Positions 6,996-30,618 are shown, counted from the first letter of the stretch. The stretch is 30,618 nucleotides of DNA from an uncultured Methanosarcinales archaeon (GCA_964432255.1 CAYSMN010000003.1:1-30618), one strand, 5' to 3'. Program-made: numbers and translations. The notes: generated by a model not told the origin, from the sequence alone.

Positions 6996-7700
6996 TTACA
7001 ATCCGAGTTTTCGTGCCAAATCCTGTGCTTCTGCCAGTTGTTCAGGCGTTCCGATGTCCATAATGTGGCTGCATATTTCGTATTCAAACTCGATTCCTTT
7101 GTCGATGAGCATTTGTATTGCCTCTGGAAGCCAGTATTCTCCTTTTGGCCCTTGTTTTACTTCTTTGCACGCTTTGAAAATTTCGTGGGGTAGTATGTAA
7201 ACGCTTAAATTTGCAAGGTTTGTCGGTGGCTGTTCTGGTTTTTCTATTATGCGCAATACTTTTTTTCCTTCCGTGACGAGTATTCCGTATCTTCTGCCGT
7301 CCTCTACTTCGGTGCAGGTGAATACTCCTGGCGAAGTGTGCTTCAAGAGTCTTTTGAGCAAGTGTGTTTCGAAGAGCGAATCACAAGCGATAACCAGAAA
7401 TCGTTTGTCGGTTATGTAATGCTCTGCGCGCGCAATCGCGTCTGCTGAGCCCTTTAATTCCGGCTGTTCAACATAAGTTATTTTGAGTCCGAACTTCGAG
7501 CCGTTTCCAAAATATTTAGTGATTTGTTCCTTGAGATAGTTGACGATGATGACGACTTCGGTAACTCCGACTGTTTTTACTTGTTCTAGTATTATTTGCA
7601 GCATCGGCTTGCTATTGATTGGGAGCATTGCCTTAGGAATGGTGTCTGTAAGTGGCTGTAGTCTTGTTCCTCTTCCTGCCGCTAGTATGATTGCTTGCAT
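6996..7700 (-). CDS. Sugar-1-phosphate nucleotidyltransferase (RmlA/GlmU-N-like, no hexapeptide tail)
   Basis: ILAAGRGTRLQPLTDTIPKAM, EQPELKGSADA, YGIL, IIEKP and DIGTPE. Sugar specificity cannot be determined. Confidence 0.92.
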   Translation of the reverse strand: MQAIILAAGRGTRLQPLTDTIPKAMLPINSKPMLQIILEQVKTVGVTEVVIIVNYLKEQITKYFGNGSKFGLKITYVEQPELKGSADAIARAEHYITDKRFLVIACDSLFETHLLKRLLKHTSPGVFTCTEVEDGRRYGILVTEGKKVLRIIEKPEQPPTNLANLSVYILPHEIFKACKEVKQGPKGEYWLPEAIQMLIDKGIEFEYEICSHIMDIGTPEQLAEAQDLARKLGL

Positions 7701-7722
7701 GCAGTATTGGAAAACAGCTGTG

Positions 7723-7732
7723 TTTTATAAAA
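7723..7732 (-). promoter_or_regulatory. TATA box of the nucleotidyltransferase gene
   Basis: TTTTATAAAA 22 nt upstream of the minus-strand ATG at 7700. Confidence 0.6.
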
Positions 7733-7753
7733 GTTTAGAAGCTTATTAGATAC

Positions 7754-7841
7754 TATAGTGTGCGTAAAGTTTTTAAATGCCATTTATAATAAGGTAGCAC
7801 AGTGGGAAATATAGTGATTTGTATTTGAAAAGGGGAGACAA
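7754..7841 (+). promoter_or_regulatory. Promoter and leader of giant surface protein 1
   Basis: TATAGTGTGCG at 7754, AAAG-TTTTTAAAT (BRE/TATA-like) ending at 7778, and SD-like AGGGGAG at 7831-7837 before the GTG start. Confidence 0.55.
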
Positions 7842-10800
7842 GTGAATACCAAGAAACTGTTAGGTGTATTCATTCTAATAGCGGTAGTCATTGGTTTCTC
7901 TTTGGGGGTTGCAGGCCAGCAGACCGATGAAAGTCCTGGGTTTTTCTCTTCGTTGTGGTCGTGGGTTGTTGGTTTCTTCAAATCTTTTGCAGGCATTTCT
8001 GGTGCTGCTCAAGTAAGTCCTCAGTCCGTGTGTGGTAATGGTGTTTGGGAGCCTGGCGAGATTTGTGACCAGTCAGGTTCTCCTAGCGGTTGCAGCCCGG
8101 GGCTGTTTTGCAATAATTGTTATACGTGCACGACATGTGGCAATGGCGTTGTTGATGTCGGTGAAGTGTGTGATGGCTCTGCAAGTCCGGCTGGTTGTCC
8201 GCTTGGTGAGACGTGTTATTATAACTGTGATGCATGCGGAGCTGCGACTCCAACACCAACGCCTACTCCTACTCCAACTTCTACATCCATAGCAACTCCT
8301 ACTCCAACGCCGACTCCTACGCCTACTCCGACTGCCAGTCCTACCCCAACGCCTACTCCTACTCCGACTCCTACTCCGACGCCTACTCCTACTCCAACGC
8401 CGACTCCTACTCCGACTCCCACGCCTCCTGGTGCTACGCCAGAGCCTACTCCTACCCCAACGCCAACTCCTACTCTGAGGCCTACGCCAACTTCAACGAC
8501 GACTACCGGCGATAGTACTCCGCGTTGCTGCTGTTGGTGTCCTAATCTTCCTCCGGGCAGTGTCACCCCGCAAATTATCCCAGTAGACCAGTGCGGTGGT
8601 TATCCTGGTGCAATTGGTGGCAATTTCTGTGCAGGCGGGCCCGGGATATGTGATGAGAGCAAATGTAAGGAACAGCCTACTTATGTGACGCCTGCACCCA
8701 CTCCCACACCAACTCCTACGCCAACTCCTACGCCTCGGACTGATTGTTGTGCATGCGTACAGGATTGCGAGAACGAGAAAACAACTGGAATGCCTATTGC
8801 TGCTTTGCAGATGGCCAATCCAGATGTTAACGTCGTGCCTGGTGCAAGAGAATTCTTTTGGACAATTGATTGTCCTAATGTGTGTAATAATTTGGCATTT
8901 AATGACTGTCCTCTTGGTTTTGAAGCGCGCTGTATCAGCCAGAGTGACCCTGATATAGATGACTGGTGCGATACTAAGATATGTGGCGATAAAAAAGTTG
9001 ATTGTTTGAATTCTGACTGCCAGTGTGAGGAGTGTGATGAGGGCGGTTGGGGCGTGATTGATGTAGACGACAATGGTAACGATGTTTACTGCAATCCGCA
9101 GTGTAAGAAAGTTAAATGCGCGGATATTCCGTGTGATGAGGCCGAGTGTGAGAACATGGCCCAGGCATCTGGTGCTGGGGCAGGCACTGGCTCGGGTTTC
9201 CCAAGTTCCTTCTTTACCAGTAGTTTTGGGAATAATTGGTATTGCGGCAACACTTGGCATGCTGATGACCACTGTGTGACAGAACCAGACCTTCTTCTTG
9301 GCGAAGTAGCGGATGCAGCTTTTAATTTTGGTCATTGTATTCCTCGTGAGTGGGAGGACAGTTCAGGAGCTCCAGACCAGCCGCCTGCTGAACCTGATAA
9401 GTATTGTCCTGATTGTGGTTTGGAGCCTGTGCCGTGTGTTGAATTTATTACAAATTTTGCTGGTTCCTGCTGTAATTCTGAGGATGCTTTCCTTGGCGAG
9501 CTTATTCCTGAGCCTGCGTTCCAGCCAGGGCTTCAATATTCTGGTCCTGCCGGTGCTGCGGTGTACAATCCATTCTTTACGCCTGAGCAGGTGCAGAATC
9601 CTGATTTCCAGACTCAGCCGATGTCTGCCAATCCTTTCTTCAGTGTGAACAATGTTCAAAACCCGTCTTTTGTCGGCATTCAGAACATTCAAAATCCGTA
9701 CTTTAGCGGTGTTCCTCAGCCGTTGGTCGGTCCTGAAGCGTCGTGCGAGCCGAGTATGCTTCGTGATTTGATGCGTTTGACAACTCTTTCAACTATGGGC
9801 GGTGGCTTTGGTGGAACAGATTTTGATTCTATTAACGCCGATTTCCCCGGCGTGATGGGATTGTTCCAGTCATTGTGCTGTCCGAAGGATGAGTGTGGTA
9901 ATGATGAGCTTGATGATGGTGAGGAATGTGATCCTCCGAACTCCGCCTGTTCTGGGGGCAGGGTGTGTTCAGTTGACTGCATGTGCACGCGTCCAACGTG
10001 TGGTGATGGTGTTCTTGATCCTGGGGAGCGCTGTGATCCTGGAAGGCTTGTTGCGTATGATGAGCCTGTGCCTCCTCTTGGCGCTGCTGAACTGCTGGTA
10101 GGCTCTGCCGACACGAGAACAATTGGCAGCTCGGATTCTGGGTATATACAGTCTGGTTATGGTGTTATTCCAGGCACTGGGTGGCAGGAGCCTCCTCCTG
10201 GTTATAACGTGCAGGGCACAGTGTATCAGTCCGGAGTTACTGGAGCAAGTGCGTATCAGTCTCAGCCTCCTCCTGGATACGTTGCAGCTCCTGGTTATAA
10301 TTATCAGTCAGGTCTTCCAGGCTTTACTGTTTCTGGAACTCCTGGTTACGAATCTGGCTTTGGATTTGGCTACACGCCTGGCACCAGTTCAAGTTACATT
10401 TTCGGTACTGGTTACCAGCAGCCGAATGTTGTTGGGTATGGGCCGATGTATTCAACAGTCTCTTCTGCTCAGAAAGCATTGGTAAAGCCTATGATTCTTG
10501 GGTTTACTGAAGCGTTTACGTATCCGTTCAATACGTTGAGTGATGCGACTGTTGCAGCAAGAGAAGGCGCTCCATACTTGTGCGACGATGAGTGTGATTG
10601 GGTTATTTGCGGTGATGGATCTGTTGAGGGTGATGAGTGTTGCGATCCTCCGAATGGTCAGACGTGTTTTGAGGGTTGTACGTGTTTGCCAAAGTGTGGT
10701 GATGACAATCTTGATCCTGGCGAGGAGTGTGAGCGTCCTGGTGATTTGTGCATGACTGTTCTTGGAGCTAATGGGATATGTAACAGGAATTGCCAGTGCA

Positions 10801-13800
10801 AGAAGCCAGGCTGTGGTGATAGTATTGTTGACCCTGAAGGCATTGACGGTATTTTTGGAACTGCTGATGATGAAAACTGCGATCCTCCTGGCCAGGTGAA
10901 GAATGCTCAAATCTGTTCAGATGAATGTAAATGGACTACGTGGACTTGCGGCGATGGTCTGGCAGAACCTGATGGGCAGGATGGTGTTGAAGGAACTTAT
11001 GATGATGAAGAATGCGGCGAGCCTGGTTTGTCTTGTGAGGAAGGCTTGTCGTGCGTGAGGTGCAGGTGTGTACTTCCGTTCTGTGGTGATGGAGTGCAGC
11101 AGAGCAATGAGGAGTGCGAGCCTCCGGGTGTTGGCGATTGTAATTACGATTGCACAAAGTCTAAATGTCCTGATGGCAAGGTTGGTCCTAATGAGGACTG
11201 CGAGCCGAGAGGCGCTTGTGATCCTGAGTGTGGCTCTGACTGCAAATATAATTGTGGTAATGGCAGGCTGGATTGTGGTGAATCATGTGATGAGTCTGTT
11301 TCAGGCATGGAATCAACCTGCCAGTATTGTCAGCCGTTGTGGCCTCCGGTCTGTGGAAATGGAAAGAAAGAGAAGGGCGAGCAGTGCGAGCCTCCTGGTA
11401 CTACAAATTGCGATGAATATTGTCAGGTGAAATTGTGCGATCTGGACAACGGTGAATGCTGCGCGAATCCATGTTTGCCTCAATGTGGTGATACTGGGTG
11501 CGGCTGTGATGAACCGTGCTGTGGCGAGCAGTGTTGCGGCGAATGTCCTCCGCCTGTTCCTCCGCCTCAGCTTCCGGTTATTGATGCAAAGGTTGTATGC
11601 ACTTCAGAATGTGCGAGCGCTGAATATGGGGATGATAATTCATTGACTGTTCAGCAGGAGCGTGCCTTGAGAAAGGCCACAGATAAGGACGTCATTTCAG
11701 TTGTTGCCGTTGATAGTTGTTGTGCTGGTGACTCTTTGAGGTTTACTCAGAGCGTTCCGAATAATTATGCGAACGTTGAGGCGTTTGCCCTCAGCGGTGA
11801 TGATGTGATGAGTTTGGACCGCACGATTGGGCAGGGAGTAGTTTGCGGCGGATTTACAACCGACCAGATAATCGATAATCCTGGTTGCGTTCAGTGCATC
11901 CAGCGTCCTGAAGGATTGGTCAGCTGGTGGCCTGCTGATAAGCATACGAATGACATTCAAGGCAATAACCCTGGTACACTCGTGCTTGGTACAAATGGTA
12001 ATGTGAATCCTGATGCGGCGTTTGCTGATGGAATGGTGCTGGAAGCTTTCAATCTTGACGGGCTTGATGATTTTGTCAGGATGGGTGATGTTCTTGATCC
12101 AGGGTTGTCCAGCTTTACGATAGATGCGTGGTTTAAGCTGAGCGAGGAGCCTTCTGAGTTCGCTATTCTTCAGAAGGGTTCTTATGGTATTTTTGGCGAT
12201 GCAAAGAATATCTGGTTCGGTGTAAGCGATGGTGTTCATCAGGTTTTCGCAACCGCGTTGCTGCCCTCCTTGTACGAATTCCACCACGTTACTGGAGTGC
12301 TTGACAGGGACAAGAGTGTTATTAAATTGTACATCGACGGAGCTTTAGCAGACTATCAGGATTATGGCGCTCTTGGAATAGATTTGGGCAGTATAGAGAA
12401 TGATAACTCATTCTCAATCGGTGCAGTTGACTCGCGAGAGCCGTCTAAATTCTTCCATGGCTTGATTGACGAGGTCGAATTCTTCTACAGGCCGGTTGGT
12501 CTTGGTGAAGTGAAATCTATTGTTGGCGCGTGGCATGCGGGCAAGTGTAAGTCTTGCGTGCTGCCGCCTTATGATTTGGTCAGCTGGTGGACCGGCGACA
12601 GGCATACGAGAGATGTTATGGACTCAAATCACGGGCTCTTGGTGCTCGGAACTCAGGGCAACACATTTGTAGTGAACGCGTATGCTGACGGATTGGTCGA
12701 TAAAGCGTTCAAGCTTGATGGAATTGATGACTTTGTGCTGGTTAATGACAGGAATAATCTTGATATCATCCGCGAGCTTACAATTGACATGTGGTTGAAT
12801 CAGGATGGACCAAGTAATCGTTATGTAATTTCCAAACTGCCTGGTGATTCACAGGGTAATTATGGCTTGCAGGTCTTGGAAGATGGCAAGTTAAGATTTG
12901 TTACGTTTGATACAGAGCCGCGTTTTGTTGACAGTGCTTCTGGTGTTCAGCCGAAAAAGTGGAATCATGTTGCAGTCACGATTGATGCGCAGGCGAAGGA
13001 AGTCAGGTTCTATATTGATGGAAAATTGGATGCAGTCAGGAACTGGCCGTATCCATTGCCTGCAAATAATGCGCCTTTGACTATCGGTGCTGGCGAGAAA
13101 GGAGCGCCGGGCAACTTTAACGGATTGATTGACGAAGTCGAAATATTTGACCGTGCTTTGAAAGAAGAGGAAATCTTGGCAATTGTCAGTGCTGACAAGC
13201 ATGGCAAGTGTAAGCCGTATTGCGAGGAGAAAGTGCATGATTATTATGTTGACGAGTTGGAAATGCATTTGGTGCAGGAATCTGTCACGAGCAGTGTTTC
13301 TTCAGAGCTGCCTCATTTTGAGATTGCTACTTCATTTGGCCAGCCGATTGAGATCGAAATGCATAACCTTGCTGGTGTTGTTGGTGTAACGGTTAAGCAT
13401 CCTTCTGGTCCATTGCGTGTTGATAATTCTGAAATGCGCGCAGAGAGCGGGTTTATGTTAGAGCTTGACAACTACTCACCTCCCGCTTCTCTTGGCGTGA
13501 AGGTTCCTGTTCCTGTTGATGATTTAACAGCAAGTTTGTACGTGATGCTTGGGGACACCTGGGTGAATGTTGACGCATCCAGAGTTGGCAATAAGCTGGT
13601 TGCCAAGCTGATGCCTAGTGATATTGACAAGTACTTTGTGAAGCAGGGCAACAAGTTGGTGGCATTGTTTGCAGTTTTGTCTGTTGTTGGTGCAGAAAAC
13701 ATGGCCGATAAGTTTGTTAAGTTATATGATGGCGGAGCTCAGACTGCAGTAGTATTTGTGCATGGTCTGACTACTAACCAAGTCAGCTTGAGAAAATTTG

Positions 13801-14972
13801 TTTTCGAGTATGAGCGTATGAAGGACTCGTCGAGAGTGTATGGGTTCTTCTATTCGCCGACCAAAACTCTTGAAGAATTGGCAAAGGAGTTTGCAGAACT
13901 GGCATCTTCCCGTTTGCTGGAAGACGGCATTTCTGAAGTGTACATTGTGCCGTATTCGTTTGGAGGTATTGTGGCGCAGGAAGCGTTGAAATACTCAAAG
14001 GATAATGGTTTGGCGCTTTACTCATTGACTAACAAGGTTGTGTACATCGGCACTCCGTTTGGCGGCGTGCAGATTATTGACGTGTGGAAGGATTTCTTGT
14101 CTTATATCGTGAATACGCCTGTTGCCTCAGGAAGATTGAACATTGACAAGAGCATTCTTGAAGTGCTGGCTAAAGGAAGGCAGCTGCCAGAGCCGAGTGA
14201 TAATGCTGAGCACGGCTTGGTTATTGGCACGCGGGGCTATCCGTTTACCAGCAAGTTCTTCGATAAGCCTAATGATGGTGTTGTTGACGTTGCTCGCGCT
14301 CGGCCTACATGGTTTGAGGAAAGGGCAGTTTGCGATCCGAATGTGTTGAAAGTGCATTTGACGCATGACCAGCTGCCGGGCGCTTATCCTGTTCGTGATT
14401 TCGTGTACAAGCTGACAAACAGCGAAAAAGCAGCCCAAAATCCGGATGAGGCAATTCTTGGCTACAGCCAGAGTGTTGATGTGAAGCAAGGAAGTTGCCA
14501 TCCTGGCGATAAGATCGTGATTGTTGGAGAATTGATTCCGGAAGAAGCACGGCCTCATGCGTGCTCGTGCGGAGATGGCGTGTGCGGTATTGGTGAGGAC
14601 TTCAGGAGTTGTCCGGTTGACTGCGCCAGTGTATGGCAGAAGTTTAATGTGTGCTTGTACATTCCGTGGACAACTGATTTCCTGTTGCTGGCCTTATTGA
14701 TAATTTCTGTTGTCTATATTTATCGCAAGGAGAGGACTCACGATCGTGGAAAAGGATTCATTGTCCTGTTTGTAATCTTGGCTATTGTTTCTGTGGCTGT
14801 TGCCGCTCACTATTTCAATTGCCGTTATGTGTTGCCGTTGTCAATTTTGCTTCTGCTGATTAATGTTTTGTTGATGATTGTAGCATTGGTTCACTTCAGA
14901 AAGCCTAAGGGGGCCAAGCCGATTGAGCATTCTTTGAAGAGGCTTGAGGAACTCTTCCATAAAGTTAAATAA
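7842..14972 (+). CDS. Giant membrane-anchored surface protein (2376 aa)
   Basis: Uninterrupted ORF: signal peptide; about 12 CG[DN]G..E.CD modules (Myxococcus Cys-rich/DUF4215-like); Pro-Thr tracts; two LamG-like domains (about 11895-12548 and 12552-13212); an alpha/beta-hydrolase domain (VFVHG, PYSFGG, NDGVV, LTH); a CGDGVC..E....CPVDC module; three C-terminal TM helices and a basic tail. Confidence 0.93.
8247..8506 (+). repeat. (Thr-Pro)n coding tandem repeat, mucin-like stalk
   Basis: Degenerate ACN-CCN hexamer repeat encoding about 85 aa of TPTPTP; a shorter second tract lies at about 8688-8738. Confidence 0.95.
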
Positions 14973-14975
14973 AAA

Positions 14976-15317
14976 TTACTGCGTTATAATCGCGACGCCG
15001 CCGATTATAAGAATGATGCCGAGCCATTTTATGGCAGGGAATTTTTCTCCAAGGAAAGATATCGAGAACAGCGTGACCCAGATGTAGCTGGTCGCGATGA
15101 TAGGATAGGCTATTGACAGGTTGCTGAATTTTAGGGCAATTATGAAGAGGATGGTTGAGGTTGCGTATAATGCGATTCCTACAATAAGTTTCCAATTGAA
15201 TAGCCACGAGGTGATATCGGCGCTGATGTCTTTTGAGCCGAGTTTGAAAAAGAGCTGGCCAAAACCGCCAAGGAGTGCGCAGAAGAGCACGAGTCCGATG
15301 AGTGCAAGTTTTTGCAT
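14976..15317 (-). CDS. SMR/EamA-like (ArnE/ArnF-type) small 4-TM transporter, candidate lipid-linked sugar flippase
   Basis: GQLFFKLG, ALKFSNLSIAYPIIATSYIW and FLGEK. A TATA box about 23 nt upstream supports the MQK start at 15317. Confidence 0.8.
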   Translation of the reverse strand: MQKLALIGLVLFCALLGGFGQLFFKLGSKDISADITSWLFNWKLIVGIALYATSTILFIIALKFSNLSIAYPIIATSYIWVTLFSISFLGEKFPAIKWLGIILIIGGVAIITQ

Positions 15318-15340
15318 GGTGCTGTTGCCGCGCGCATAGT

Positions 15341-15372
15341 ATATAAAAGTTGCTCTCCATAACATTTAAATA
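15341..15372. promoter_or_regulatory. Back-to-back TATA boxes for the SMR gene (-) and the Pmt fusion gene (+)
   Basis: Minus-strand TTTTATAT at 15341-15348 and plus-strand TTTAAATA at 15365-15372, each about 23 nt from its ATG. Confidence 0.6.
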
Positions 15373-15395
15373 AGTCGCTGACCGGCGCATTTGAA

Positions 15396-17798: not shown

Positions 17799-17867
17799 GG
17801 ATGGTTTTTATATGAATGTGGATTTTGATGTTAAGGGAATAGTAAAATTTGGGGTGACAGGGTAAAA

Positions 17868-18608: not shown

Positions 18609-18646
18609 AGATACAAATGTCATCATTCTGACGCGGATGAAGTAAT

Positions 18647-20215: not shown

Positions 20216-20289
20216 CTTTATGCAGTGTTTTGGCGATTGAAAAGGTTTAAAAGTCGTTATGTGTATATGTTGAATTAGAGGGTTGCAAA

Positions 20290-22140: not shown

Positions 22141-23473
22141 CTGCCCCTGCCAGAGCTGCGAGCTGGATGCCGAATTGTCGGAAAAGATAACCTGGTAGCT
22201 GTCCGCTGAGCAACGGTCTCAATTGTCCAATCAGTCCGTGGACTTCCATATTGCAGTACATTGTCCCCATGAGAGCGCCCGTTATGTTTATTGCAACAGA
22301 GGCAATGCCTACAAGGATTATGCCCGCGAGCAGGTATTCGGATTCTGGTGTGTGCTTTTTTTGGTAGCGTGCAAAGAAGCCAGCAAGTCCTATAATTATG
22401 AAAGGCATTGACGGTAGAAGATAACGTGGTCCATATTGGCAGCCGCCATTCGTTTGGAATAGCGCGAGATAAGGAACTAAAAGGACAAAGCTCAAAGGCA
22501 GCAGGTATTTTTCAATTCTGTGCGTGCGTGGAAGGAGGGCAAAGCCTAAAAGTGCGATTATGAATATGGGAGAGTAGAAGATTATTGCTGTTGTGGGTGA
22601 TAAAACATAAAAGTCGATTTTTTCAATAATGTTTTTCATATCGATGTGCGGCATGGAGTCTGTCCATTTATTGCCAATTGTTATCGGGAAAGCAAGCGGA
22701 TGGTTGAATACTGCATAGTTGAAAGCAAATGTTGGAAGTAGGCCAATTATGAAGCAAATTCCGTAAATGGCGATGTGCTTCCATCGTTTGTGGAGAACGA
22801 CATACGAGCTGTTAATTGCCATATTTACAAGTTGTTGGGCAGACATGAACAGCGCAAGTCCGGACAAAAAGCCGCTGATTCCTATTGAGAATTGTGAAGT
22901 TTTTGTCGAGTGGTATGTGCGGTAGAGGAGGTAGAACGCGAGTAATGATATGAATGTGCCGTGCACCTCGTGGTGTGTGACGCCCGCGTAGGGCAATGCA
23001 ATCGTTCCAAATCCATAGAAGAGCGCAATTATCATTGACGAGATGGTGTTTTTTGTTATATCTTGCGCGATGAGTAATACGAGTGTCATCATGACGGCCG
23101 TCATCAGGGCTGAGGTGAGCAGGGTTACAAGTCCTGCTGTTAGAAAGTAATCGCCTTTGTAAGTGATTCCGAATGCACGAAGGAAGGAGTACACAGCCGC
23201 ACCTATGAAAAATTGCCCCGGCTGTTTTGCAGGGTATACGTGGCTCTCAAACTCGACAGTATCCCCGACGTTTTTGAACTCAGCTGTGTCTGATCCATCG
23301 ACATAATAATGGTGGCGTTCCACAAGTGCTTCAATCCCTGCCTGCTGTAGGTTAAATGCGCGCGTATCGTTAGTGTTGATGAATGATGCAAGTATGCCGA
23401 ATGCTAAAATGAAAAAGACGAGTGCAAAAGGAAGCTTTTGTAAAATTGTTGCAGGTTTGAAATGCATATTCAA
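22094..23473 (-). CDS. Putative GT-C-like polytopic membrane protein
   Basis: First-loop ND motif, YPAKQPG, about 10 TM helices and late motif GGCQYGPRYLLP; similar to 25134..26594. Confidence 0.65.
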   Translation of the reverse strand: MNMHFKPATILQKLPFALVFFILAFGILASFINTNDTRAFNLQQAGIEALVERHHYYVDGSDTAEFKNVGDTVEFESHVYPAKQPGQFFIGAAVYSFLRAFGITYKGDYFLTAGLVTLLTSALMTAVMMTLVLLIAQDITKNTISSMIIALFYGFGTIALPYAGVTHHEVHGTFISLLAFYLLYRTYHSTKTSQFSIGISGFLSGLALFMSAQQLVNMAINSSYVVLHKRWKHIAIYGICFIIGLLPTFAFNYAVFNHPLAFPITIGNKWTDSMPHIDMKNIIEKIDFYVLSPTTAIIFYSPIFIIALLGFALLPRTHRIEKYLLPLSFVLLVPYLALFQTNGGCQYGPRYLLPSMPFIIIGLAGFFARYQKKHTPESEYLLAGIILVGIASVAINITGALMGTMYCNMEVHGLIGQLRPLLSGQLPGYLFRQFGIQLAALAGAVILQKLYTSRSRALA

Positions 23474-23477
23474 TGAA

Positions 23478-25058
23478 TCACCCAGTAGTATTACTATTTT
23501 GTGTCAATGGCTGAATGTCAAAAATAATATATCCTGCGACATGGTCTATGGGCGTAAGTTTTCTAAGCCAGGCGCGGCAGGTACGCTCGCCCATATCACC
23601 GAGCTCTATTAGTTCGTTAGCTCGGATTGCAACGCGCCCCGGAAGGTATTCGCAGCCCGCCCCCTTTCTGACTGGCACGGGGTTTTTTTCTATATATTTT
23701 GCGATTTCTTTTTCTCCCAATCCCCAGTCTATGTTTGAATCAGCTAGATATTTCCATCCGTATTTTGGTCCTCCTGTAATTTCGTTGAAATATGATAAGT
23801 AATAGGGAGAAATAAATGCTGCTGATATGACGTACCACAGAAGAAATGCTCCGAGCAAAAAGCGTGTTTTGCTGTTTTTAAACAACTCAATGGTCGAACC
23901 CGCCATTACTAAAAGGAATGGATATGTTGGCAGCACGTGGCGTAATCCAATGTTCAATCTGTTGAAGTATGAGAATACAACGAAAAGTATGATGACTGGA
24001 ACGATGATGAAAAGTATGTCCATGCTTCTTTTTTTATAGAGGCAATAAAATGAAAGCAAAATTAGACCGAGCAACGGAATGGGCGTTTTTATGGCAACTG
24101 CAACAAAAAAGTAATACCACCAGCCGACGCCAGAGTCGGAATACTGTCCTAACAAATACACCGGTCCATCGAGGTGTCTCTGGCCGTGTACTTTGGCGTA
24201 ATCAAACCCCAATAGATATGCGGATGGCACGATACTTGGAAGAAATGGCATTTTTTCTGCAAGACTGCTGAGTAAGTCAGATTTAAACGTGTGCGATCCT
24301 ATTGGTGTGAACGTTCCTTTGAATAAGTACGCCGCATTCACGACAAGAATCGCAATGATAAATATCATCACAAGCAGGCAGGCATATCGGGTTTTCTGTT
24401 TTTTCCTAGTGAAGTAATAAATGCCGAAAATTAAAAAAATTGGAACGAGCAAGGCGGCAGTGAATTTTGCTATGAGCGCAAATCCCAGAACAAGTCCTGA
24501 TACGCATGCGCTTTGAATGGTATCATTGTTTACAAATTTCCAAAAAAAGTAGGTGGATATGAAAATCATGCACGCAGCCGGAATGTCAGTGGATACAACT
24601 CCTGAATGCGCGATGATATTGGGTTCGAATGCATACAAAAAGAGCGCAAGCAAGCCTGCCGTAATGCCAAAAAGCTGCTTTGCCCACAGAAAGACGAAGA
24701 TGCCTAAGATGATTCCAAATAAGAGCGTGATGAGCCGCGCCTGGTTTAAGAGCGAACTATAGTGTGGTTCGTAGAAGTTATCAGATAAGGAATTCGGGAC
24801 GGGAAAATCATGGCGCAGGAATGGCAATGCGTTAAGCACGTGCAAAGGTGGATGTTCTCGGCTGACATCAAGACTGAGGTAGTATTCTCCTGTTCTAAGG
24901 TACTTGTACGCTACATTGATATGCCCCAGTTCATCGTAATTGTTTGCTGAAGCTGTGTAAATTTCATACACGGCTTGCGATGAATATATTATGAGCAAAA
25001 GCAGAATAATTTTTTTATTGTGCGCGATCAGCAATTCTAAAAAACGGTTTTGGCGCAT
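23478..25058 (-). CDS. ArnT-like lipid-carrier-dependent GT-C glycosyltransferase
   Basis: YDELGH, EHPPL, FEPNIIAHSGVVSTD, AKFT, IKTPIP, NIGLRHVLP and YLSYFNE..GG...LADSNIDWG. Confidence 0.85.
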   Translation of the reverse strand: MRQNRFLELLIAHNKKIILLLLIIYSSQAVYEIYTASANNYDELGHINVAYKYLRTGEYYLSLDVSREHPPLHVLNALPFLRHDFPVPNSLSDNFYEPHYSSLLNQARLITLLFGIILGIFVFLWAKQLFGITAGLLALFLYAFEPNIIAHSGVVSTDIPAACMIFISTYFFWKFVNNDTIQSACVSGLVLGFALIAKFTAALLVPIFLIFGIYYFTRKKQKTRYACLLVMIFIIAILVVNAAYLFKGTFTPIGSHTFKSDLLSSLAEKMPFLPSIVPSAYLLGFDYAKVHGQRHLDGPVYLLGQYSDSGVGWWYYFFVAVAIKTPIPLLGLILLSFYCLYKKRSMDILFIIVPVIILFVVFSYFNRLNIGLRHVLPTYPFLLVMAGSTIELFKNSKTRFLLGAFLLWYVISAAFISPYYLSYFNEITGGPKYGWKYLADSNIDWGLGEKEIAKYIEKNPVPVRKGAGCEYLPGRVAIRANELIELGDMGERTCRAWLRKLTPIDHVAGYIIFDIQPLTQNSNTTG

Positions 25059-25081
25059 TCAGGCAAGTGTGGCTATTGCAT

Positions 25082-25111
25082 TTATTAAATTATTGTCAAA
25101 ATATTTATAAA
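25082..25111. promoter_or_regulatory. Back-to-back TATA boxes for two divergent GT-C genes
   Basis: Minus-strand TTTAATAA at 25082-25089 (ATG at 25058) and plus-strand TTTATAAA at 25104-25111 (ATG at 25134). Confidence 0.6.
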
Positions 25112-25133
25112 GGGATATAAACTTTTTTCGGCA

Positions 25134-26594
25134 ATGGAAAAAAAGAGGCCGGATGTTTTCTCGGTTAGTGATTATGTCGCCTTGTTTTGCGCGGTTGTTC
25201 TTATTGTCGGTCTGATCCTGGGCATTTATGGAAAAGTACAATATTGGGTGACTGCTGCCGTCTTTCTTTTCTTCCTCTGCGTGTGGATTATATGGGGATT
25301 TTTCATGCAAAATACTAAGGACGCCTTAGTTACGTTTGTAATTTTCTCAATAGTATTTTTAACGCTGAGTTTTTCCGTGACTGAAAAAGGCATCCGCGTT
25401 GAGAATGACCGTTCTCGTATGGGTACTATTGGAAGTATATTCGTTCATAACACTTTTGCAGAAACACAATACAATATCGGCTCAGATAAGATGATTATCA
25501 ATGGCACATCTTATTCATCAAAGCCCCCGATGCTTTCATTTCTTGGAGCAGGTGTGTTAGGCGTAATGGCTAAAGTCAGGGATTATTATGGAAAGCCAAC
25601 TGACCCCAACGGGACGTATGAATATTATTGGTTGGTTCTTTTTCTGATAGCGCTTCCATCCGCATTAGCCGCAGTAGTGTTTTACAAGCTATTGAAATAC
25701 GCCGAAATTCATGAATTTTACCGTTATGTGTTGGTTTTTGCATTTATTTTCGGAACGCTGATGTTCAGTTTTAGTTCAGTTCTTAATAATCATACAGTCG
25801 CTGCAGCTTGCGTGCTTGCAGGTTTCTATTTTTTCTTTTGTGCGCGTTTTGACCAATCATGGAGATCCGCTGTGGCGAGTGGCTTTTTCTTTTCTCTCGC
25901 AACTACCATTGAGCCGCAAAGCGGTGTCTGGTTTGTCCTGTTTCCTGGATTGTTTCTCATTAGGCGCAAGTACAAATTGTGCCTGCTGTATGCTTTAGGC
26001 GCATTGCTGCCTTTAATCTTTCATTTCCCTCTTCAGTATCAGATAACGGGCAATATGCTGCCGGCGCAATTCCAGAGCAATGAAGTACTCATCTGGGAGG
26101 GCTCGCCATGGCCTGAGGTCTTCGTCCGTATTAGCAAATATACATGGTGGGAGAAAGTATGGGATACAACATTTGGTGCATGGGGTCTGTTCACTTACAC
26201 TCCTATATTTTTATTTTCTTTTTGGGGTCTGTTTGCTGAGCTAAAGCGACGAAAAAACAAATTCTGGTGGGAGGCATTAGTCACGTTGCTTGGGATAGTG
26301 TTCTTTATTTTCTATTATTATTCGCATTTAGTAAAGGATTATGGAGGTCCCGGATGGGGTTTCCGCTGGTATATTCATTTTATTCCATTGTTGTTCTTCT
26401 TTACTGCGAATTTATTTGTTGGAAGGGATCGTTTGACATGGGGCAATGCAATCTTTTTGGTCGTGTTCTTGTTAATCGTGGCATATTCTGTGTATGTGGC
26501 GCATCTGGGAACAATTTATGCGTGGGAATTCGGTAATCGCCCCGTCCCTGCATATTTGGACTTTAGATGGGAAGCACAATATTACAGTAAATAG
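25134..26594 (+). CDS. Putative GT-C-like polytopic membrane protein
   Basis: ENDRSR, YSSKPPM, LNNH, FTYTPIF and GGPGWGFRWY; similar to 22094..23473. Confidence 0.65.
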   Translation: MEKKRPDVFSVSDYVALFCAVVLIVGLILGIYGKVQYWVTAAVFLFFLCVWIIWGFFMQNTKDALVTFVIFSIVFLTLSFSVTEKGIRVENDRSRMGTIGSIFVHNTFAETQYNIGSDKMIINGTSYSSKPPMLSFLGAGVLGVMAKVRDYYGKPTDPNGTYEYYWLVLFLIALPSALAAVVFYKLLKYAEIHEFYRYVLVFAFIFGTLMFSFSSVLNNHTVAAACVLAGFYFFFCARFDQSWRSAVASGFFFSLATTIEPQSGVWFVLFPGLFLIRRKYKLCLLYALGALLPLIFHFPLQYQITGNMLPAQFQSNEVLIWEGSPWPEVFVRISKYTWWEKVWDTTFGAWGLFTYTPIFLFSFWGLFAELKRRKNKFWWEALVTLLGIVFFIFYYYSHLVKDYGGPGWGFRWYIHFIPLLFFFTANLFVGRDRLTWGNAIFLVVFLLIVAYSVYVAHLGTIYAWEFGNRPVPAYLDFRWEAQYYSK

Positions 26595-26598
26595 AATT

Positions 26599-27735
26599 TT
26601 ATTTTATTTCCTGGATGATTTTTTCACAAAGGTGTTCCCATGACAGTTCCTTTTTCATGAGCGCGATGTTGTCTTTGAAGCGGTCTGGTGCTCCATCGCG
26701 GTAGAACGCTATAATTGCGCGTGCAATCTGTTCGCCATTGCGGGGCTTGACCAGATAGCCTGTCTTGTTGTTCTTTACAATGTCACCGAGACCGCCGACA
26801 TCAGTGGCAATGACGGGCTTGTCAAATGCATAGGCGATGTTAATCACGCCGGATTGCGATGCGGAAACGTATGGAGTGACAACGAGGTCTGCTGCTGAGA
26901 AATAAAAGGGGACATCTTCATTCGGGACGTAGTGATCAATTATCTTGACGTGATTCTTAATTCCCAGTTGTTCAATTTTATTCATATATTTTTGTTTTTT
27001 TTCAAAAAATTCGCCTACGATATAAAGGGTTACTGGTATTTTTTTAAGAACTGCTGGAAGCGCATCGAGCAGATAATCAAGGCCTTTGTAGGGTCTTACG
27101 AACCCGAAGAACAGCACTGCTTTATCCGTGATGTTTAATCTTTTCCTGGCAGCGGTTTTGCTGATTTTTTTGTAAAAAAGGTCATAAATGGGGTGGAAGA
27201 GTTTTTTGACAGACGCCTGGGGAACAATGTGTTTGACGCGCTGGTAGTCGTCTTGTGAGTGGACAACAAATAGGTCAATTTCATTGAAAATCAGCTTGAT
27301 AAGTAGGGGATCGAAAACAGTTTTTTCGTGCGGCAGGACTTCATGGCATATGGCAACAATCCTGCAGGGGTGTTTTTTTCGCAGCATTCTGAATAATGTA
27401 TAGAATGGTATTGAGAAATACGACATATGCCAGTGGAAAATGAGAACATCTGGCTTAAATTGTGCAATTGTTTTGGCCGTTTTTGCCCAGCTGAAGGGGT
27501 TGAGCGTGTCGAATATAAACTCTGCATGTCCGCGGAAGAAGTTTTTGCTGCGGACATCTTTTTGTGTTTTTCCTGGATAGAGCCAGTCCGGAAATGCGCG
27601 TGAATACGAGATGATTTGGGTCTGCGCTTTCTGTGCGAGGTGGTTGCACAATTCAGTGTTGTAATGAGAGATGCCTCCTTTGAATGGGCAGACCGGACCA
27701 AGGACAGTTATTCGTAGTTTCTTTTTACCAGGCAT
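26599..27735 (-). CDS. GT4 family (GT-B) glycosyltransferase
   Basis: GPVCPFKGGISHY, CHEVLPHE, LFFGFVRPYKGL, SQSGV and PVIATDVGGL. The start MPGKK at 27735 is chosen over the longer ORF-track start. Confidence 0.92.
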   Translation of the reverse strand: MPGKKKLRITVLGPVCPFKGGISHYNTELCNHLAQKAQTQIISYSRAFPDWLYPGKTQKDVRSKNFFRGHAEFIFDTLNPFSWAKTAKTIAQFKPDVLIFHWHMSYFSIPFYTLFRMLRKKHPCRIVAICHEVLPHEKTVFDPLLIKLIFNEIDLFVVHSQDDYQRVKHIVPQASVKKLFHPIYDLFYKKISKTAARKRLNITDKAVLFFGFVRPYKGLDYLLDALPAVLKKIPVTLYIVGEFFEKKQKYMNKIEQLGIKNHVKIIDHYVPNEDVPFYFSAADLVVTPYVSASQSGVINIAYAFDKPVIATDVGGLGDIVKNNKTGYLVKPRNGEQIARAIIAFYRDGAPDRFKDNIALMKKELSWEHLCEKIIQEIK

Positions 27736-27839
27736 TAAAATACCCCTTTGACTCTTCATAGTCTCAAAAAGGTTTCTTTTTAAAAAGTTAACGGCAGTTG
27801 TAGGAAAGCTTTTAATAGTGTGCAATTTATTTTTTTTGT

Positions 27840-28769
27840 ATGCTTTTAGTCACGGGGGGAACAGGTTTTATTGGCAGGCATCTTATTAAAAGGCTCGTTG
27901 ATGATGGTCATAAAATTATCTGCTTTGTTGATCCGGATGATAAGCGTGATAGATCTTTCCTTAATAAGCTCAAGGTTGATATCATCTATTGTGATATTAC
28001 GCGCAAAGCGAACGTGGTGAAGGGGTTTGATAAGTGCAAAGATGTTCAGGCAGTGATTCATCTTGCCGCTATCATAAAGCCAAGTCCCGGGCGCGATGAC
28101 AATGAGTTTATCGAGGTTAATGTTGACGGCACACGTTTTCTTGCAGAGGAATGTGAGAAGCGCGGAATTAAGCGTTTTGTCTTTTATAGCACGGATTTCG
28201 TTTTGTATGGATATCCGACTGTATATGGCGAAAGCAAAGCGAAAGCCGAGGAGATTTTGAGGAAGAGCTCGCTGGAGTATACAATCCTGCGCCCAACGCC
28301 AGTCTACGGTCCTGGAGATGATAAGAATTTTAATACGTTGTTTGAATTGGTGCGCAAGTTTCCGGTGCTCCCTTCAGTAAGGTGCGTTATGCAGCCGGTT
28401 AATGTCAGGGATGTTGTTGAGGCGACTGTTGCAGTGTTGAATAATGATAAGACGTACCGCAAGGAATACAATCTGGCCGGTGGTTCGGCAGTTTCTTTTG
28501 CACAGATTCTTCGGATTCTTGCCAGCGAAATGGGAAAGAGGCGTTTGATTGTTCCGGTTCCGGGAAAACTGATGCAGGCCACTGTGCGGTTGTATGAGCG
28601 TGTCGTGCCTCGTCCGGTTGTGCGTGATTATCAGATCAGCAAATGGCTGCTCAACAAGGAATTGTCTATCGAGGATAACAGAAACGATTTTGGGTATGCG
28701 CCTGTATCGTTTGAAGAGGGCATGCGTGAGACCATGCGGGTTATTGGAGTTTCTAAGCGTCAGGCATAA
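27840..28769 (+). CDS. NAD-dependent epimerase/dehydratase (extended SDR)
   Basis: VTGGTGFIG, IHLAA, NVDGT, YGESK, LRPTPVYGPGD and QPVNVRDV; TATA TTTTAATA at 27810-27817. Confidence 0.9.
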   Translation: MLLVTGGTGFIGRHLIKRLVDDGHKIICFVDPDDKRDRSFLNKLKVDIIYCDITRKANVVKGFDKCKDVQAVIHLAAIIKPSPGRDDNEFIEVNVDGTRFLAEECEKRGIKRFVFYSTDFVLYGYPTVYGESKAKAEEILRKSSLEYTILRPTPVYGPGDDKNFNTLFELVRKFPVLPSVRCVMQPVNVRDVVEATVAVLNNDKTYRKEYNLAGGSAVSFAQILRILASEMGKRRLIVPVPGKLMQATVRLYERVVPRPVVRDYQISKWLLNKELSIEDNRNDFGYAPVSFEEGMRETMRVIGVSKRQA

Positions 28770-28801
28770 ACTTTAAATGTTGTTGCATAAAACTTACACG
28801 T

Positions 28802-29530
28802 ATGGGGGCGCATAGTGTTGAAATTGTCATTCCAGTGTTGAATGAAGAGGAAGTTCTTGAAGATAATATTGTGCGGTTGCATGTTTTTTTGGCGAAAAAT
28901 TGCCCGATTCCCTGGCAAATAACTATTTTTAGCAATGGCTCGACTGATGGCACGGTGGCAATTGGAACACAATTAAGCAGGCGTTTTTCACGGGTGAATT
29001 TTAAGCACATTCCCGAAAAGGGCAAAGCAAAAACATACAAGCTCGCGTGGCCGTCAAGCAGGGCATCAATTGTTGGTTTTATGGATGCTGATTTGTCAAC
29101 CGAACTCGATGCGATTCCAAAATGTCTGGGCAGCATAATTCATGGCAAAGCGGATATTGTGATTGGCGACCGACATGCGTCAGCTGCGCTTATCGAGCGT
29201 TCATTGAAGCGGGAGATTTTATCTCGCGGGTACAATTTTCTGATTAAATCCCTGTTTCCAAAGACAAGAGTTCGCGATGCGCATTGCGGCTTTAAGTTTC
29301 TTAGAAAGTCGGTTGCGTGCTTGCTCCTGCCGCATATCAGGGATGACTGCTGGTTTTTTGATACTGAATTGTTGATGCTGGCAGAGCAGACCGGACACCG
29401 GATTGAGCAGGTTCCGGTCATGTGGGTTGAGCGAAAGGCGAGCAAGGTCAAGATAACGCGCGTTGTGACTGATTACTTTTTCAACCTGTTAAAGCTCCGC
29501 ATGCGATTGTGGCGTTTGCAGTACTTCTAA
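28802..29530 (+). CDS. GT2 polyprenol/dolichol-phosphate hexose synthase (DPM1/ALG5-like)
   Basis: IVIPVLNEE, NGSTDGT, FMDADLST, DAHCGFK, FFDTELL and VPVMWVE..ASKV; TATA TTTAAAT at 28772-28778. Confidence 0.88.
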   Translation: MGAHSVEIVIPVLNEEEVLEDNIVRLHVFLAKNCPIPWQITIFSNGSTDGTVAIGTQLSRRFSRVNFKHIPEKGKAKTYKLAWPSSRASIVGFMDADLSTELDAIPKCLGSIIHGKADIVIGDRHASAALIERSLKREILSRGYNFLIKSLFPKTRVRDAHCGFKFLRKSVACLLLPHIRDDCWFFDTELLMLAEQTGHRIEQVPVMWVERKASKVKITRVVTDYFFNLLKLRMRLWRLQYF

Positions 29531-29566
29531 GGCAGTTATCACGTTTCAATAGGTACGTAATATTTT

Positions 29567-29645
29567 TATAGTGCGCTTTTAAATAGATAGCGTTGCGTAG
29601 GAGACGCGCTTTAGTGGCGCTATCCCACAAAAAGGGGAAACAAGG
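29567..29645 (+). promoter_or_regulatory. Promoter and structured leader of giant surface protein 2
   Basis: TATAGTGCGC, TTTTAAAT at 29577-29584, stem GATAGCG/CGCTATC, and SD-like AAGGGGA before the GTG at 29646. Confidence 0.55.
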
Positions 29646-30618
29646 GTGAACAGTAAAGTTTGGTTTGTGGGAGTCCTGTTTTTATTAGTTTTTAGTACGC
29701 CCGTTATTGCTGGCGATGCTGATTCTGAAGGCTTTTTGGCATCAATTTGGCATGGCATCCAGAATTTCTTTGGTGGTTTTGGTATTACCGGTGCGCAGAC
29801 AATTGGAACAAATGGTATTTCTGTGCAGGCAACGTGTGGTAATGGTGTTTGGGAGCCTGGTGAGATTTGTGATGAGTCTGCTTCGCCTAATGGTTGTGAT
29901 GCGGGCAAGGTTTGTGATGTTTGTTATTATTGTAGAATTCCATGTGATCCTGCTAATGGTAATGCGGAGTGTCCTCCGGGTGAAACTTGTAAGGAATACG
30001 AGCCTGGTGAGTGGTCTTGTGGGGGTCCTATAGCTACTCCTACTCCGACTCCTACGGCTGCTGCGACTCCAACTCCTACTGCTACTCCTGAGCCAACTCC
30101 TACTCCGACTCCTACAGCCACTCCTACTCCTACTGCTACTCCTGAGCCAACTCCGACTCCTACTCCGACTGCGACGCCAACGCCTACTCCGACGCCAACT
30201 CCTACGCCTACTCCAACGCCAACTCCTACTCCGACAGCAACTCCTACGCCTACTCCGACTCCTACAGCCACACCAACTCCTACTCCTACTGCAACGCCGA
30301 CTCCTACTCCGACAGCAACTCCTACGCCTACTCCAACTCCAACCGCGACTCCTACTCCAACGCCAACTCCTACTCCTTCTCCGACTCCGACTGCTACGCC
30401 TACTCCAACTCCTACTCCTACTCCTTCTCCGACTCCGACTGCGACGCCAACACCAACTCCTACGCCAACTCCTACTGCTACTCCTACGCCTACCCCGACT
30501 CCTACTCCGACTCCAACACCAACTCCTACGCCAACTCCTACTGCTACTCCTACGCCTACCCCGACTCCAACCGCGACTCCTACTCCAACGCCAACTCCTA
30601 CTCCTTCTCCGACTCCGA
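29646..30618 (+). CDS. Paralogous Cys-rich/Pro-Thr surface protein, 3'-truncated by the window edge (not in the ORF track)
   Basis: Translated by hand from GTG: [84 protein letters not shown]...[14 protein letters not shown]..., with no stop before the end. The N-terminus aligns with the 7842 protein. Confidence 0.92.
30036..30618 (+). repeat. Long (Thr-Pro/Ala)n coding repeat
   Basis: About 190 codons or more of TP/TA units, including exact internal duplications of 56 nt (30447 and 30513) and 55 nt (30336 and 30564). Confidence 0.95.

Follow-up and report, generated by a model that had tools for sequence, protein, structure and literature searches.

A candidate dedicated O-glycosylation island for giant, mucin-like surface proteins in a DPANN-type archaeon

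The window analysed here (GCA_964432255.1 CAYSMN010000003.1:1-30618) is one whole contig (C3) of 30,618 bp, from a 1.02-Mb assembly of 151 contigs that is estimated to be 96% complete. From position 6996 to the contig end it carries an island of 14 genes with intergenic gaps of -47 to 141 bp (Table 1). Two genes for surface proteins with Thr-Pro stalks are found in this island, together with candidate genes for sugar activation, lipid-linked donor synthesis, flipping and glycosyl transfer, among them a GT39/Pmt-type enzyme. We propose, with a probability of roughly 0.6, that the island mainly O-glycosylates the Thr-rich stalks of these two proteins, which are encoded at its ends, and so is dedicated to them. 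The broader claim, that this is an extracytoplasmic, lipid-linked glycosylation island, is highly probable. A first-pass annotation had described the locus as a self-contained archaeal system for adhesin O-glycosylation, and all of the genes that it listed are present according to Pfam and NCBIfam assignments. Its interpretation is partly supported and remains the best one, given the recurrent clustering, the co-occurrence of Pmt with Pro-Thr (PT) tracts and a genuine GT39 module, but it needs qualification: the system is only in part archaeal, since the Pmt fusion and a 616-amino-acid (aa) partner are members of a Woesebacteria/Microgenomates family and probably of bacterial origin, and a relative (G012) has a stalk without Pmt.

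The enzyme on which the proposal turns is an 800-aa fusion of two glycosyltransferase modules of the GT-C class. Its C-terminal module (residues 417-800) exceeds the Pfam cut-offs for PMT (38.1 bits; cut-off 22.7) and for PMT_4TMC (75.1 bits; cut-off 32.4), and this is the single occurrence of PMT_4TMC in the host genome. An AlphaFold (AF2) model of the fusion, derived from 56 homologues, has a pLDDT of 90.6. In this model, residues 404-800 can be overlaid on Pmt4, Pmt2 and Pmt1 of fungi at Z scores of 32-35 and root-mean-square deviations of 2.6-2.9 Å over ~380 residues, at 19-22% identity, whereas the next GT-C families (AglB, ArnT and ALG12) reach Z scores of 25-26. The top seven Foldseek matches of the module are all PMTs, and PMTs are the sole matches when the fusion is used to search PDB sequences. 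Loop 1 contains an FDEV motif that aligns with the one in C. thermophilum Pmt4; across the 56 homologues E440 does not vary, and D439 is conserved to at least 90%. By Pfam thresholds, motif and modelled fold alike, this half of the fusion is thus a genuine GT39-type module, which bears out the Pmt-like domain of the first-pass annotation. Among the GT39 relatives that searches of solved structures and of the literature returned, those of known function are all protein O-glycosyltransferases.

No Pfam match to a MIR domain was found in the fusion, and the model has just a short beta-hairpin at residues 669-683. Bacterial Pmts are also without MIR domains, and this feature therefore places the module with the prokaryotic type. 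Against the actinobacterial Pmt equivalog model NF058602 the fusion scores 80.9 bits, with a cut-off of 800, and so is a family member and not an equivalog. The N-terminal module (residues 8-383) resembles ALG6 (Z 29.0), ALG3 (Z 27.3), GPI-MT-I (Z 26.1) and PimE (Z 20.9) in fold. Its Pfam matches to GT87 (20.7 bits against a threshold of 25; E 4e-4) and ALG3 (17.7 against 23.6) are sub-threshold.

The presumed acceptor is a giant protein in which a signal or anchor segment, a Cys module and a Thr-Pro stalk are followed by Cys-rich repeats, two LamG domains, an alpha/beta-hydrolase-like region and C-terminal transmembrane (TM) helices. It contains 132 Cys residues. The second stalk protein resembles the N-terminus of the giant: their signal and Cys modules are 40-46% identical, and its PT tract (30015-30614) is at least 200 aa long, with 91 Thr. 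The earlier view that two paralogous Thr-Pro surface proteins bracket the island was thus confirmed for both the modules and the tracts. Comparable Thr/Pro-rich tracts occur in seven open reading frames (ORFs) genome-wide, and the two strongest are those of the island stalk proteins. This scarcity, the tight gaps between the genes and the lack of paralogues of the island GT-Cs elsewhere in the 1.02-Mb genome (tblastn, 1e-4) argue that the clustering did not arise by chance.

Members of the giant family also contain far fewer N-glycosylation sequons (N-X-S/T) than expected. Observed and expected numbers are 1/12.3 for the giant itself and 0/15.1, 6/13.0, 0/10.0 and 1/11.3 for its orthologues in G010 (C10), G012 (C6), G005 (C13) and L008, respectively. 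In contrast, a 1702-aa exported protein on contig C21 is enriched in sequons (21/11.1). The depletion fits a family of giants kept free of N-glycans, in which any glycosylation may be concentrated on the Thr stalk.

The second stalk gene is truncated by the contig end, and neither a tract scan nor tblastn found a continuation in the assembly. An ORF with a PT/SP tract at the end of contig C39 was considered as a continuation and rejected, as it encodes a subtilase with a short Ser-Pro linker and is not a paralogue. Contigs from two sediment runs depart from the window at 29850/29882 and within the PT repeat, and one of them omits 29898-30115. The divergent contigs at 29850-30420 suggest population variants or further paralogues of the second PT gene, or misassembly driven by the repeat.

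In archaea, the Pmt gene is consistently found beside the giant. Four archaeal Pmt genes were detected: those of the window, of G010, of G008 with its near relative L008 (a 394-kb contig), and of the metagenome contig L105. In each case the 3' end of a gene orthologous to the giant is at most 1.6 kb away, and GT2 and epimerase genes share the island with Pmt. The order in G010 is hisS ... DUF1385 gene, nucleotidyltransferase, giant (2472 aa, with a poly-Thr stalk), two 4-TM genes, stand-alone Pmt, epimerase and GT2. G008 and L008 have the nucleotidyltransferase, a giant with a TPTATA stalk, a 4-TM gene, the fusion Pmt and a 642-aa partner, and their island continues with a PMT_2 gene, GT2, epimerase, another PMT_2 gene and a methyltransferase. 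L105 carries the C-terminus of the giant (64% identity), a GT-C, the fusion Pmt, a PMT_2 gene, the epimerase and the GT2 (86%). Orthologues of the giant in G010, G005, G008 and G012 are 55-68% identical over the C-terminus, and wherever the N-terminus of an orthologue is visible, the Cys module is followed by a Thr-rich tract (poly-T in G010, TPTS in G012 and TPTATA in L008). The clustering is therefore reproduced in related genomes (G010, G008/L008 and L105). In G010 (C10:7574-8857) the Pmt module stands alone (427 aa), without an N-terminal extender; its nearest relative, in L105, is a fusion, and the G010 Pmt apparently lost its N-terminal half.

A comparable linkage is found in bacteria. 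More than 650 homologues have the same length and architecture as the fusion, and those that are named belong to Patescibacteria. A scan of species-representative genomes gave 210 relatives; the best 80 of these were examined, and almost all are from Woesebacteria, Microgenomates or Patescibacteria, the one archaeal locus being G008. The bacterial fusions contain the same two modules and are 36-50% identical to that of the window over their full length. Around 79 Patescibacteria loci we counted ORFs with Thr/Ser/Pro/Ala-rich windows. There are 145 in 624 kb downstream of the fusion, compared with 1 in 663 kb upstream, and such an ORF lies at most 5 kb downstream in 64 of the 67 loci that have enough downstream sequence, most of them starting within 1 kb. 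The neighbours sampled are surface proteins with fn3, Big_13, SdrD_B or CarboxypepD_reg domains, one with an LPXTG-like end. The archaeal case pairs the same enzyme with an unrelated Thr-stalk protein, and is thus an independent second association. The co-occurrence of Pmt with PT-tract proteins, which had been suggested as a check among DPANN archaea, therefore holds for this Pmt family across two domains of life.

We favour O-glycosylation dedicated to the stalks because of these two linkages, of Pmt to the giant in archaea and of Pmt to Thr/Pro-rich ORFs in bacteria. The proposal is further supported by the scarcity of suitable tracts elsewhere in the genome, by the depletion of sequons in the giants, even though most congeners have the N-glycosylation enzyme AglB, and by experimental precedents in Caldicellulosiruptor bescii and Streptococcus mutans, which are compared with the island below. 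It seems quite unlikely that Pmt is instead a general O-glycosylation service for many exported proteins, with the giants as just two of its substrates, although this possibility overlaps with our proposal. Actinobacterial Pmts and the GT39 of Caldicellulosiruptor bescii each modify many secreted proteins (PMC11727336, PMC6151902), and the host does have the C39 subtilase with its Ser-Pro linker and a few other ORFs with Thr/Ser-rich tails. However, the two island proteins dominate the seven ORFs with suitable tracts, which are very rare outside the island, and Pmt tracks the giant locus in four of four archaeal cases.

Several observations weigh against stalk-directed O-glycosylation. Adjacency of genes is no proof of a substrate relationship, and the presence of a sugar on the PT tracts is suggested by gene linkage and by family precedent. 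The bacterial loci are syntenic relatives, such that the counts show a conserved neighbourhood and not 64 independent events. All matches to ArnE/ArnF, to the named GT2 families and to the Pmt equivalog are below curated cut-offs. The sole possible transcript signal consists of four contigs of 150-230 bp on the island, which come from a run labelled metatranscriptomic but flagged as probably DNA. Also, generic PMT_2-type GT-Cs are found in 40 of 41 related genomes, so most of the island GT-Cs could serve other glycoconjugates. Finally, giants occur without Pmt. G012 retains a TPTS stalk together with other GT-Cs and has no PMT_4TMC match, and G005 has a giant without Pmt, though its contig ends inside the giant gene. 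These two genomes imply that Pmt is dispensable for the stalk, or that other GT-Cs substitute for it.

G012 and G005 both retain the giant along with the nucleotidyltransferase and two 4-TM genes, and in both the chromosomal site is the same. In G015, which belongs to another genus, a region (C5:36446-61861) contains an 8471-aa poly-Thr ORF, and the 10 kb after this giant contain a PMT_2 gene, two 4-TM genes, two GT2 genes and LA_3751-like GT-Cs. Because G012 and G015 share it, the combination of a giant Thr-stalk protein with a GT2, a flippase-like gene and variable GT-Cs is older and wider than Pmt. A separate feature of G012 (C6:13000-62000) is a row of at least 14 PMT_2-type GT-C genes, on a contig that also has the TPTS-stalk giant; this array is unusually large for a 1.3-Mb genome. 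A ~345-aa gene without a Pfam match directly follows the giant in three relatives (L008 8534-9580, g12 17353-18393 and g05 13291-14322) and is missing from the window.

The variety of these enzymes bears on a different function for the island. It might make or decorate a surface glycoconjugate other than protein, for instance a lipoglycan or polysaccharide, or modify N-glycans or the lipid that carries them, in the manner of mycobacterial GT-C arrays, and the giants would then merely be neighbours in a variable surface-gene region. Six mutually unrelated GT-Cs with a GT4 and an FkbM methyltransferase do look like a polysaccharide or lipoglycan locus, and the GT-C set beside the giant varies among congeners as it does at O-antigen-type loci. 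The G012 array on the giant's contig and the near-universal presence of PMT_2 in the order, independent of Pmt, also agree with this idea, as does an LCP wall-polymer ligase that adjoins the fusion in bacteria. We nonetheless consider it unlikely. The GT39 relatives of known function that were found all act on proteins, linkage of the fusion to genes with Thr/Pro tracts extends over two domains of life (145:1 downstream to upstream in bacteria), and the Pfam assignments of the island genes include no polymerase, Wzx/Wzy or ABC-exporter gene.

The Pmt half of the fusion appears to have a bacterial history. In a maximum-likelihood tree, rooted at the midpoint and not with outgroups, the four archaeal Pmt sequences group together in a single clade (support 100/100), which has a few Microgenomates sequences as its sister group (99/87) and lies inside the bacterial diversity. 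The Pmt domain is rare in the archaeal phylum: a sample of 150 genomes gave G008 and one 3.7-kb contig (G058) that is too short for context. Among 40 relatives, PMT_4TMC is found in two, both congeners, and overall in 3 of 15 genomes of the genus. This nesting among bacterial sequences and the rarity of Pmt in the phylum make an acquisition from bacteria probable, with a single bacterium-to-archaeon transfer as the simplest reading. In 20 Woesebacteria loci, a ~630-aa homologue of the 616-aa protein immediately precedes the fusion Pmt in the same orientation, so that the two form a conserved gene pair, and a homologue adjoins the fusion in G008; judged by this synteny, the gene travelled with the fusion or shares its origin.

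The nearest full-length relatives of the fusion, L026 and L027 (49-50% identity), were considered as possible archaeal copies. Their RmuC, UvrD, FemAB and LCP flanks are Microgenomates-like, and so they are bacterial. The titles of many bulk-submitted metagenome-assembled genome records among L025-L104 ("uncultured Gammaproteobacteria bacterium") and of G008 ("Methanosarcinales archaeon") contradict their Microgenomates and Woesearchaeota gene content and look like placeholders; they are unreliable for taxonomy.

A gene recently acquired in this way could be a passenger that does little or nothing for the archaeon, as would be expected if it could not use dolichol-linked donors. The bacterial affinity and patchy spread (3 of 15 genomes of the genus, and 2 of the 150 further genomes sampled from the phylum) are in keeping with such a fate, as are the long branches of the archaeal sequences and the unusual composition of the window's own copy. 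However, the reading frames are intact in four diverged archaeal lineages (50-60% identity), FDEV is kept in the window copy and across the 56-sequence alignment, and the gene keeps its place beside the giant, GT2 and epimerase. At least six metagenome runs from sediment and freshwater sediment, belonging to two studies, also contain the island nearly unchanged, at a word share of 0.96-0.97 in the freshwater-sediment samples (runs X1-X6). A passenger role is therefore very improbable.

The host is a DPANN-type archaeon, as had been proposed, and belongs to Woesearchaeota, judging from its 1.02-Mb genome, its many intron-bearing tRNA genes and a giant-protein orthologue from the same genus that NCBI labels Candidatus Woesearchaeota. 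Upstream of the island are the housekeeping genes ftsZ and hisS, an MBL-fold gene and a DUF1385 gene. No match to STT3/AglB was found in the window or in the host assembly. We considered whether the lack of AglB implies a reliance on O-glycosylation, but 37 of 41 relatives, among them 13 of 14 congeners, encode an AglB/STT3 protein (~1000 aa) elsewhere in their genomes, and the idea was therefore rejected. Because nearly all relatives carry AglB, its absence here is probably an assembly gap.

Candidates for donor synthesis are found at both ends of the island. The nucleotidyltransferase matches NCBIfam models Arch_glmU (214 bits) and AglF (180 bits), in both cases under the cut-off, and has orthologues at the same site in G010, G005, G012 and L008 (63-89% identity). 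Orthologues of the SDR epimerase occur in the G010 and L105 islands (68-69% identity). These enzymes were also used in an attempt to identify the sugar, which gave no call: GlmU-N, AglF and RmlA models score the nucleotidyltransferase alike, and the SDR is unspecific. Judging from the family assignment, the activating enzyme is of the UDP/dTDP-hexose type and the sugar need not be mannose.

The GT2 is closest in PDB to the Dol-P-Man synthase of P. furiosus (5mlz; 4.7e-11), followed by ArnC, and falls far under the cut-offs of the NCBIfam equivalogs AglJ, PpgS, ArnC, PgfS and DPH transferase. Its orthologues are present in all four archaeal Pmt islands (57-86% identity) and in the GT-C clusters of G012, G015 and G039. 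The 129-aa flippase candidate has four hydrophobic segments by hydropathy. It matches ArnE with 41.3 bits (E 1.4e-10; cut-off 92) and ArnF with 35.9 bits (E 8e-9; cut-off 99). One or two copies of such a 4-TM gene lie beside the giant in G008, G010, G005, G012 and G015, and the genes are paired in all of these except G008.

The first-pass annotation counted seven GT-C domains in six genes. Five of these modules stand: the two halves of the fusion (by fold), the two PMT_2 proteins at 18647-20215 and 23478-25058, and the 616-aa protein at 20290-22140 (by its model). The other two, at 22094-23473 and 25134-26594, match below threshold and are probable GT-Cs. Both are polytopic by hydropathy, and language-model features give PMT/PMT_2-like neighbours for the former and PMT-like neighbours for the latter, which has homologues in the GT-C clusters of G012 and G015. 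The 616-aa protein has no Pfam match and gave an empty PDB sequence search, and the fold search alone was informative. The best Foldseek match is DPY19 (2.7e-8), followed by STT3/AglB/PglB, with TM-scores of ~0.45 for these, and then by ArnT and AftA, and the likeness to STT3 is limited to the general DPY19/STT3-like GT-C fold. A 53%-identical orthologue of the 23478-25058 GT-C adjoins Pmt in L105. BLAST found no similarity between any pair of island GT-Cs, and a recent duplication among them was thus rejected.

From the computed family memberships, folds, motifs, synteny and distribution we infer a sequence of catalytic steps, an acceptor and a type of sugar. The nucleotidyltransferase and the SDR epimerase would supply a nucleoside diphosphate (NDP)-hexose in the cytoplasm, from which the DPMS/ArnC-like GT2 would place the sugar on dolichol phosphate. 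The ArnE/F-like 4-TM protein may help the lipid-P-sugar to reach the outer face of the membrane. During export of the unfolded giant, its PT tract would receive a first sugar on Thr hydroxyls from the Pmt module. With lipid-P-sugars as donors, the fused ALG3/ALG6/PimE-like module and the remaining five GT-Cs could then extend or diversify the glycan, and the GT4 and FkbM enzymes might add or methylate sugars. The product would be a stiff, protease-resistant, mucin-like stalk that presents the LamG, Cys-rich and hydrolase head of an adhesin-like protein. Together with its 616-aa partner, the Pmt fusion was probably gained once from Microgenomates or Woesebacteria and would have been inserted into an older archaeal glyco-island that already had a giant protein, GT2, flippase and GT-Cs.

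This scheme resembles actinobacterial O-mannosylation, which uses Ppm1 (GT2), Pmt (GT39; for example M. tuberculosis Rv1002c) and PimE (GT87). PimE extends the glycan in protein O-mannosylation by actinobacteria. By prediction, the island shares with it a GT2 that supplies the polyprenol-P-sugar donor, a GT39 that has a DE motif in its loop and works outside the membrane on Thr/Pro-rich segments of exported proteins, and a second GT-C, PimE/ALG3-like in fold, for extension. In contrast to the actinobacterial system, a single 800-aa protein contains both GT-Cs, the archaeal host presumably uses dolichol as its carrier, sugar activation is by an enzyme of the UDP/dTDP-hexose and not the GDP-Man type, and the fusion is not an orthologue of the Pmt equivalog. 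The island also joins the presumed substrate and five more GT-Cs to these components.

The fused two-module Pmt loci of Woesebacteria and Microgenomates contain the same protein family, a 630-aa partner gene and genes for PT-rich surface proteins alongside. However, they are without GT2, flippase-like, nucleotidyltransferase or epimerase genes within 10 kb, and their neighbours are wall-anchored proteins of 150-470 aa, whereas the island has a membrane-anchored giant in a different domain of life. In the GtrA/GtrB/GtrC and ArnC/ArnE-ArnF/ArnT systems, as is proposed for the island, a GT2 links the sugar to polyprenol-P, the product is flipped by a small 4-TM protein, and a GT-C carries out the transfer on the outside. 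Those systems modify O-antigen, lipid A or wall polymers, but in the island the flippase-like gene adjoins a Pmt-type protein transferase.

Streptococcal serine-rich repeat protein (SRRP) loci had been put forward as an analogue. In streptococcal and staphylococcal SRRP loci, an adhesin with a long repeat of hydroxy amino acids is encoded beside dedicated glycosyltransferases, as is proposed for the island. The GT-B enzymes of SRRP loci act in the cytoplasm with NDP-sugars as donors, and SRRPs leave by accessory Sec export; the island has no such genes. The Streptococcus mutans cnm-pgf locus is a closer analogue, and the GT39/CelA system of C. bescii is also closer. In the order cnm-pgfS (GT2)-pgfM1 (PMT_2)-pgfE (UDP-sugar 4-epimerase)-pgfM2 (GT-C), all pgf genes are needed to modify the neighbouring adhesin (PMC5856776). 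The island likewise has an adhesin-like gene followed by GT-Cs, an epimerase and a GT2, and its GT2 matches the PgfS model weakly (E 4.6e-5). Unlike the island, the Pgf locus has PMT_2-type GT-Cs in place of a GT39 with PMT_4TMC, and its substrate is a bacterial LPXTG adhesin; the island is much larger and includes a flippase-like gene. In C. bescii, the GT39 gene Cbes_1864 is near celA, and its deletion abolishes glycosylation of Thr-Pro linkers and exposes them to cleavage (PMC6151902). As is presumed for the island, a GT39 gene is near genes for its substrates, which have alternating Thr and Pro in their linkers. The C. bescii enzyme differs in being a single Firmicute protein that acts on secreted cellulases, with no fused extender, flippase or GT2 reported in its locus.

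Archaeal O-glycans on Thr clusters have been known for decades, and in 2021 the archaeal O-glycosylation pathway was called "elusive" (PMC8241124). In the later literature we found no paper that names the enzymes, and PMT-like genes have been noted bioinformatically in Methanobrevibacter (PMC10939349). The island is, as far as can be judged from sequence, a good candidate for such machinery in archaea. What is new here is the GT39 logic in an archaeal host, the fused candidate extender, a self-sufficient island with a presumed giant substrate and a probable cross-domain origin; the enzymology itself is of the known GT39 type. Although the organism is uncultivated, one clonable 24-kb stretch contains candidates for donor synthesis, flipping, initiation by a Pmt-type enzyme and extension, as well as a presumed acceptor. 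Because Pmt is confined to one genus and is probably bacterial in origin, it would not explain haloarchaeal O-glycosylation. A substrate-linked glycosylation module would be common to bacteria of the Candidate Phyla Radiation and DPANN archaea, both ultra-small episymbionts whose surface proteins are thought to mediate contact with hosts. More tentatively, the island might represent the first identifiable set of protein O-glycosylation enzymes in Archaea. Pmt fused to its own extender would have moved between co-resident Woesebacteria and Woesearchaeota, into an older design of giant, N-sequon-free Thr-stalk proteins that each have a hypervariable GT2/flippase/GT-C island, perhaps comparable to a protein-borne O-antigen locus for host attachment or virus evasion.

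Table 1. Genes and elements of the island, in window coordinates.
Position	Strand	Feature	Basis
6996..7700	-	Sugar-1-phosphate nucleotidyltransferase (AglF/GlmU-N/RmlA-like)	Pfam NTP_transferase E 2e-43
7842..14972	+	Giant surface protein, 2376 aa, proposed acceptor	Translation; Laminin_G_3 E 5e-46
8226..8522	+	Main Thr-Pro stalk of giant	aa 129-227 (99 aa): 41 Thr, 36 Pro
8670-8753	+	Second Thr/Pro tract of giant	aa 277-304
14976..15365	-	Small 4-TM EamA/DMT protein (129 aa), ArnE/ArnF-like candidate flippase	EamA E 1e-9
15396..16544	+	Fusion, N-terminal module: ALG6/ALG3/GPI-MT-I/PimE-like GT-C, candidate glycan extender	AF2 fold
16605..17798	+	Fusion, C-terminal module: predicted GT39/Pmt-type protein O-glycosyltransferase	Pfam, motif, fold
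16707-16718	+	FDEV catalytic-loop motif of Pmt module	aa 438-441
17868..18608	+	FkbM-family methyltransferase, probable sugar methylation	Methyltransf_21 E 1e-26
18647..20215	+	GT-C glycosyltransferase, PMT_2 family	PMT_2 E 1e-12, above threshold; 12 hydrophobic segments
20290..22140	+	616-aa GT-C with C-terminal soluble domain, DPY19/STT3-like fold; conserved partner of fusion Pmt	AF2 pLDDT 76.8
22094..23473	-	Probable GT-C, LA_3751/3752-like	NCBIfam NF047440 E 2e-18, below cut-off
23478..25058	-	GT-C glycosyltransferase, PMT_2/GT22-like	PMT_2 E 7e-14 (above threshold), Glyco_transf_22 E 9e-6
25134..26594	+	Probable GT-C, LA_3751/3752-like	NF047440 E 8e-23, below cut-off
26599..27825	-	GT4 (GT-B) cytoplasmic glycosyltransferase	Glyco_trans_1_4 E 4e-28, Glycos_transf_1 E 9e-27
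27840..28769	+	SDR NDP-sugar epimerase/dehydratase-type enzyme	Pfam Epimerase E 7e-32
28802..29530	+	GT2, candidate polyprenol/dolichol-phosphate sugar synthase	Glycos_transf_2 E 1e-17, above threshold
29646..30618	+	Second Thr-Pro-stalk protein, paralogue of giant N-terminus	Translation; cut by contig end

Outside the island, the FtsZ encoded in the window (172-1239) has a 78%-identical copy on contig C29 and a 49%-identical copy on C14. On C29, a Cys-rich-repeat match to the giant lies 1.7 kb downstream of ftsZ, and this locus could be paralogous or could reflect strain contamination, which is estimated at 2.8%.

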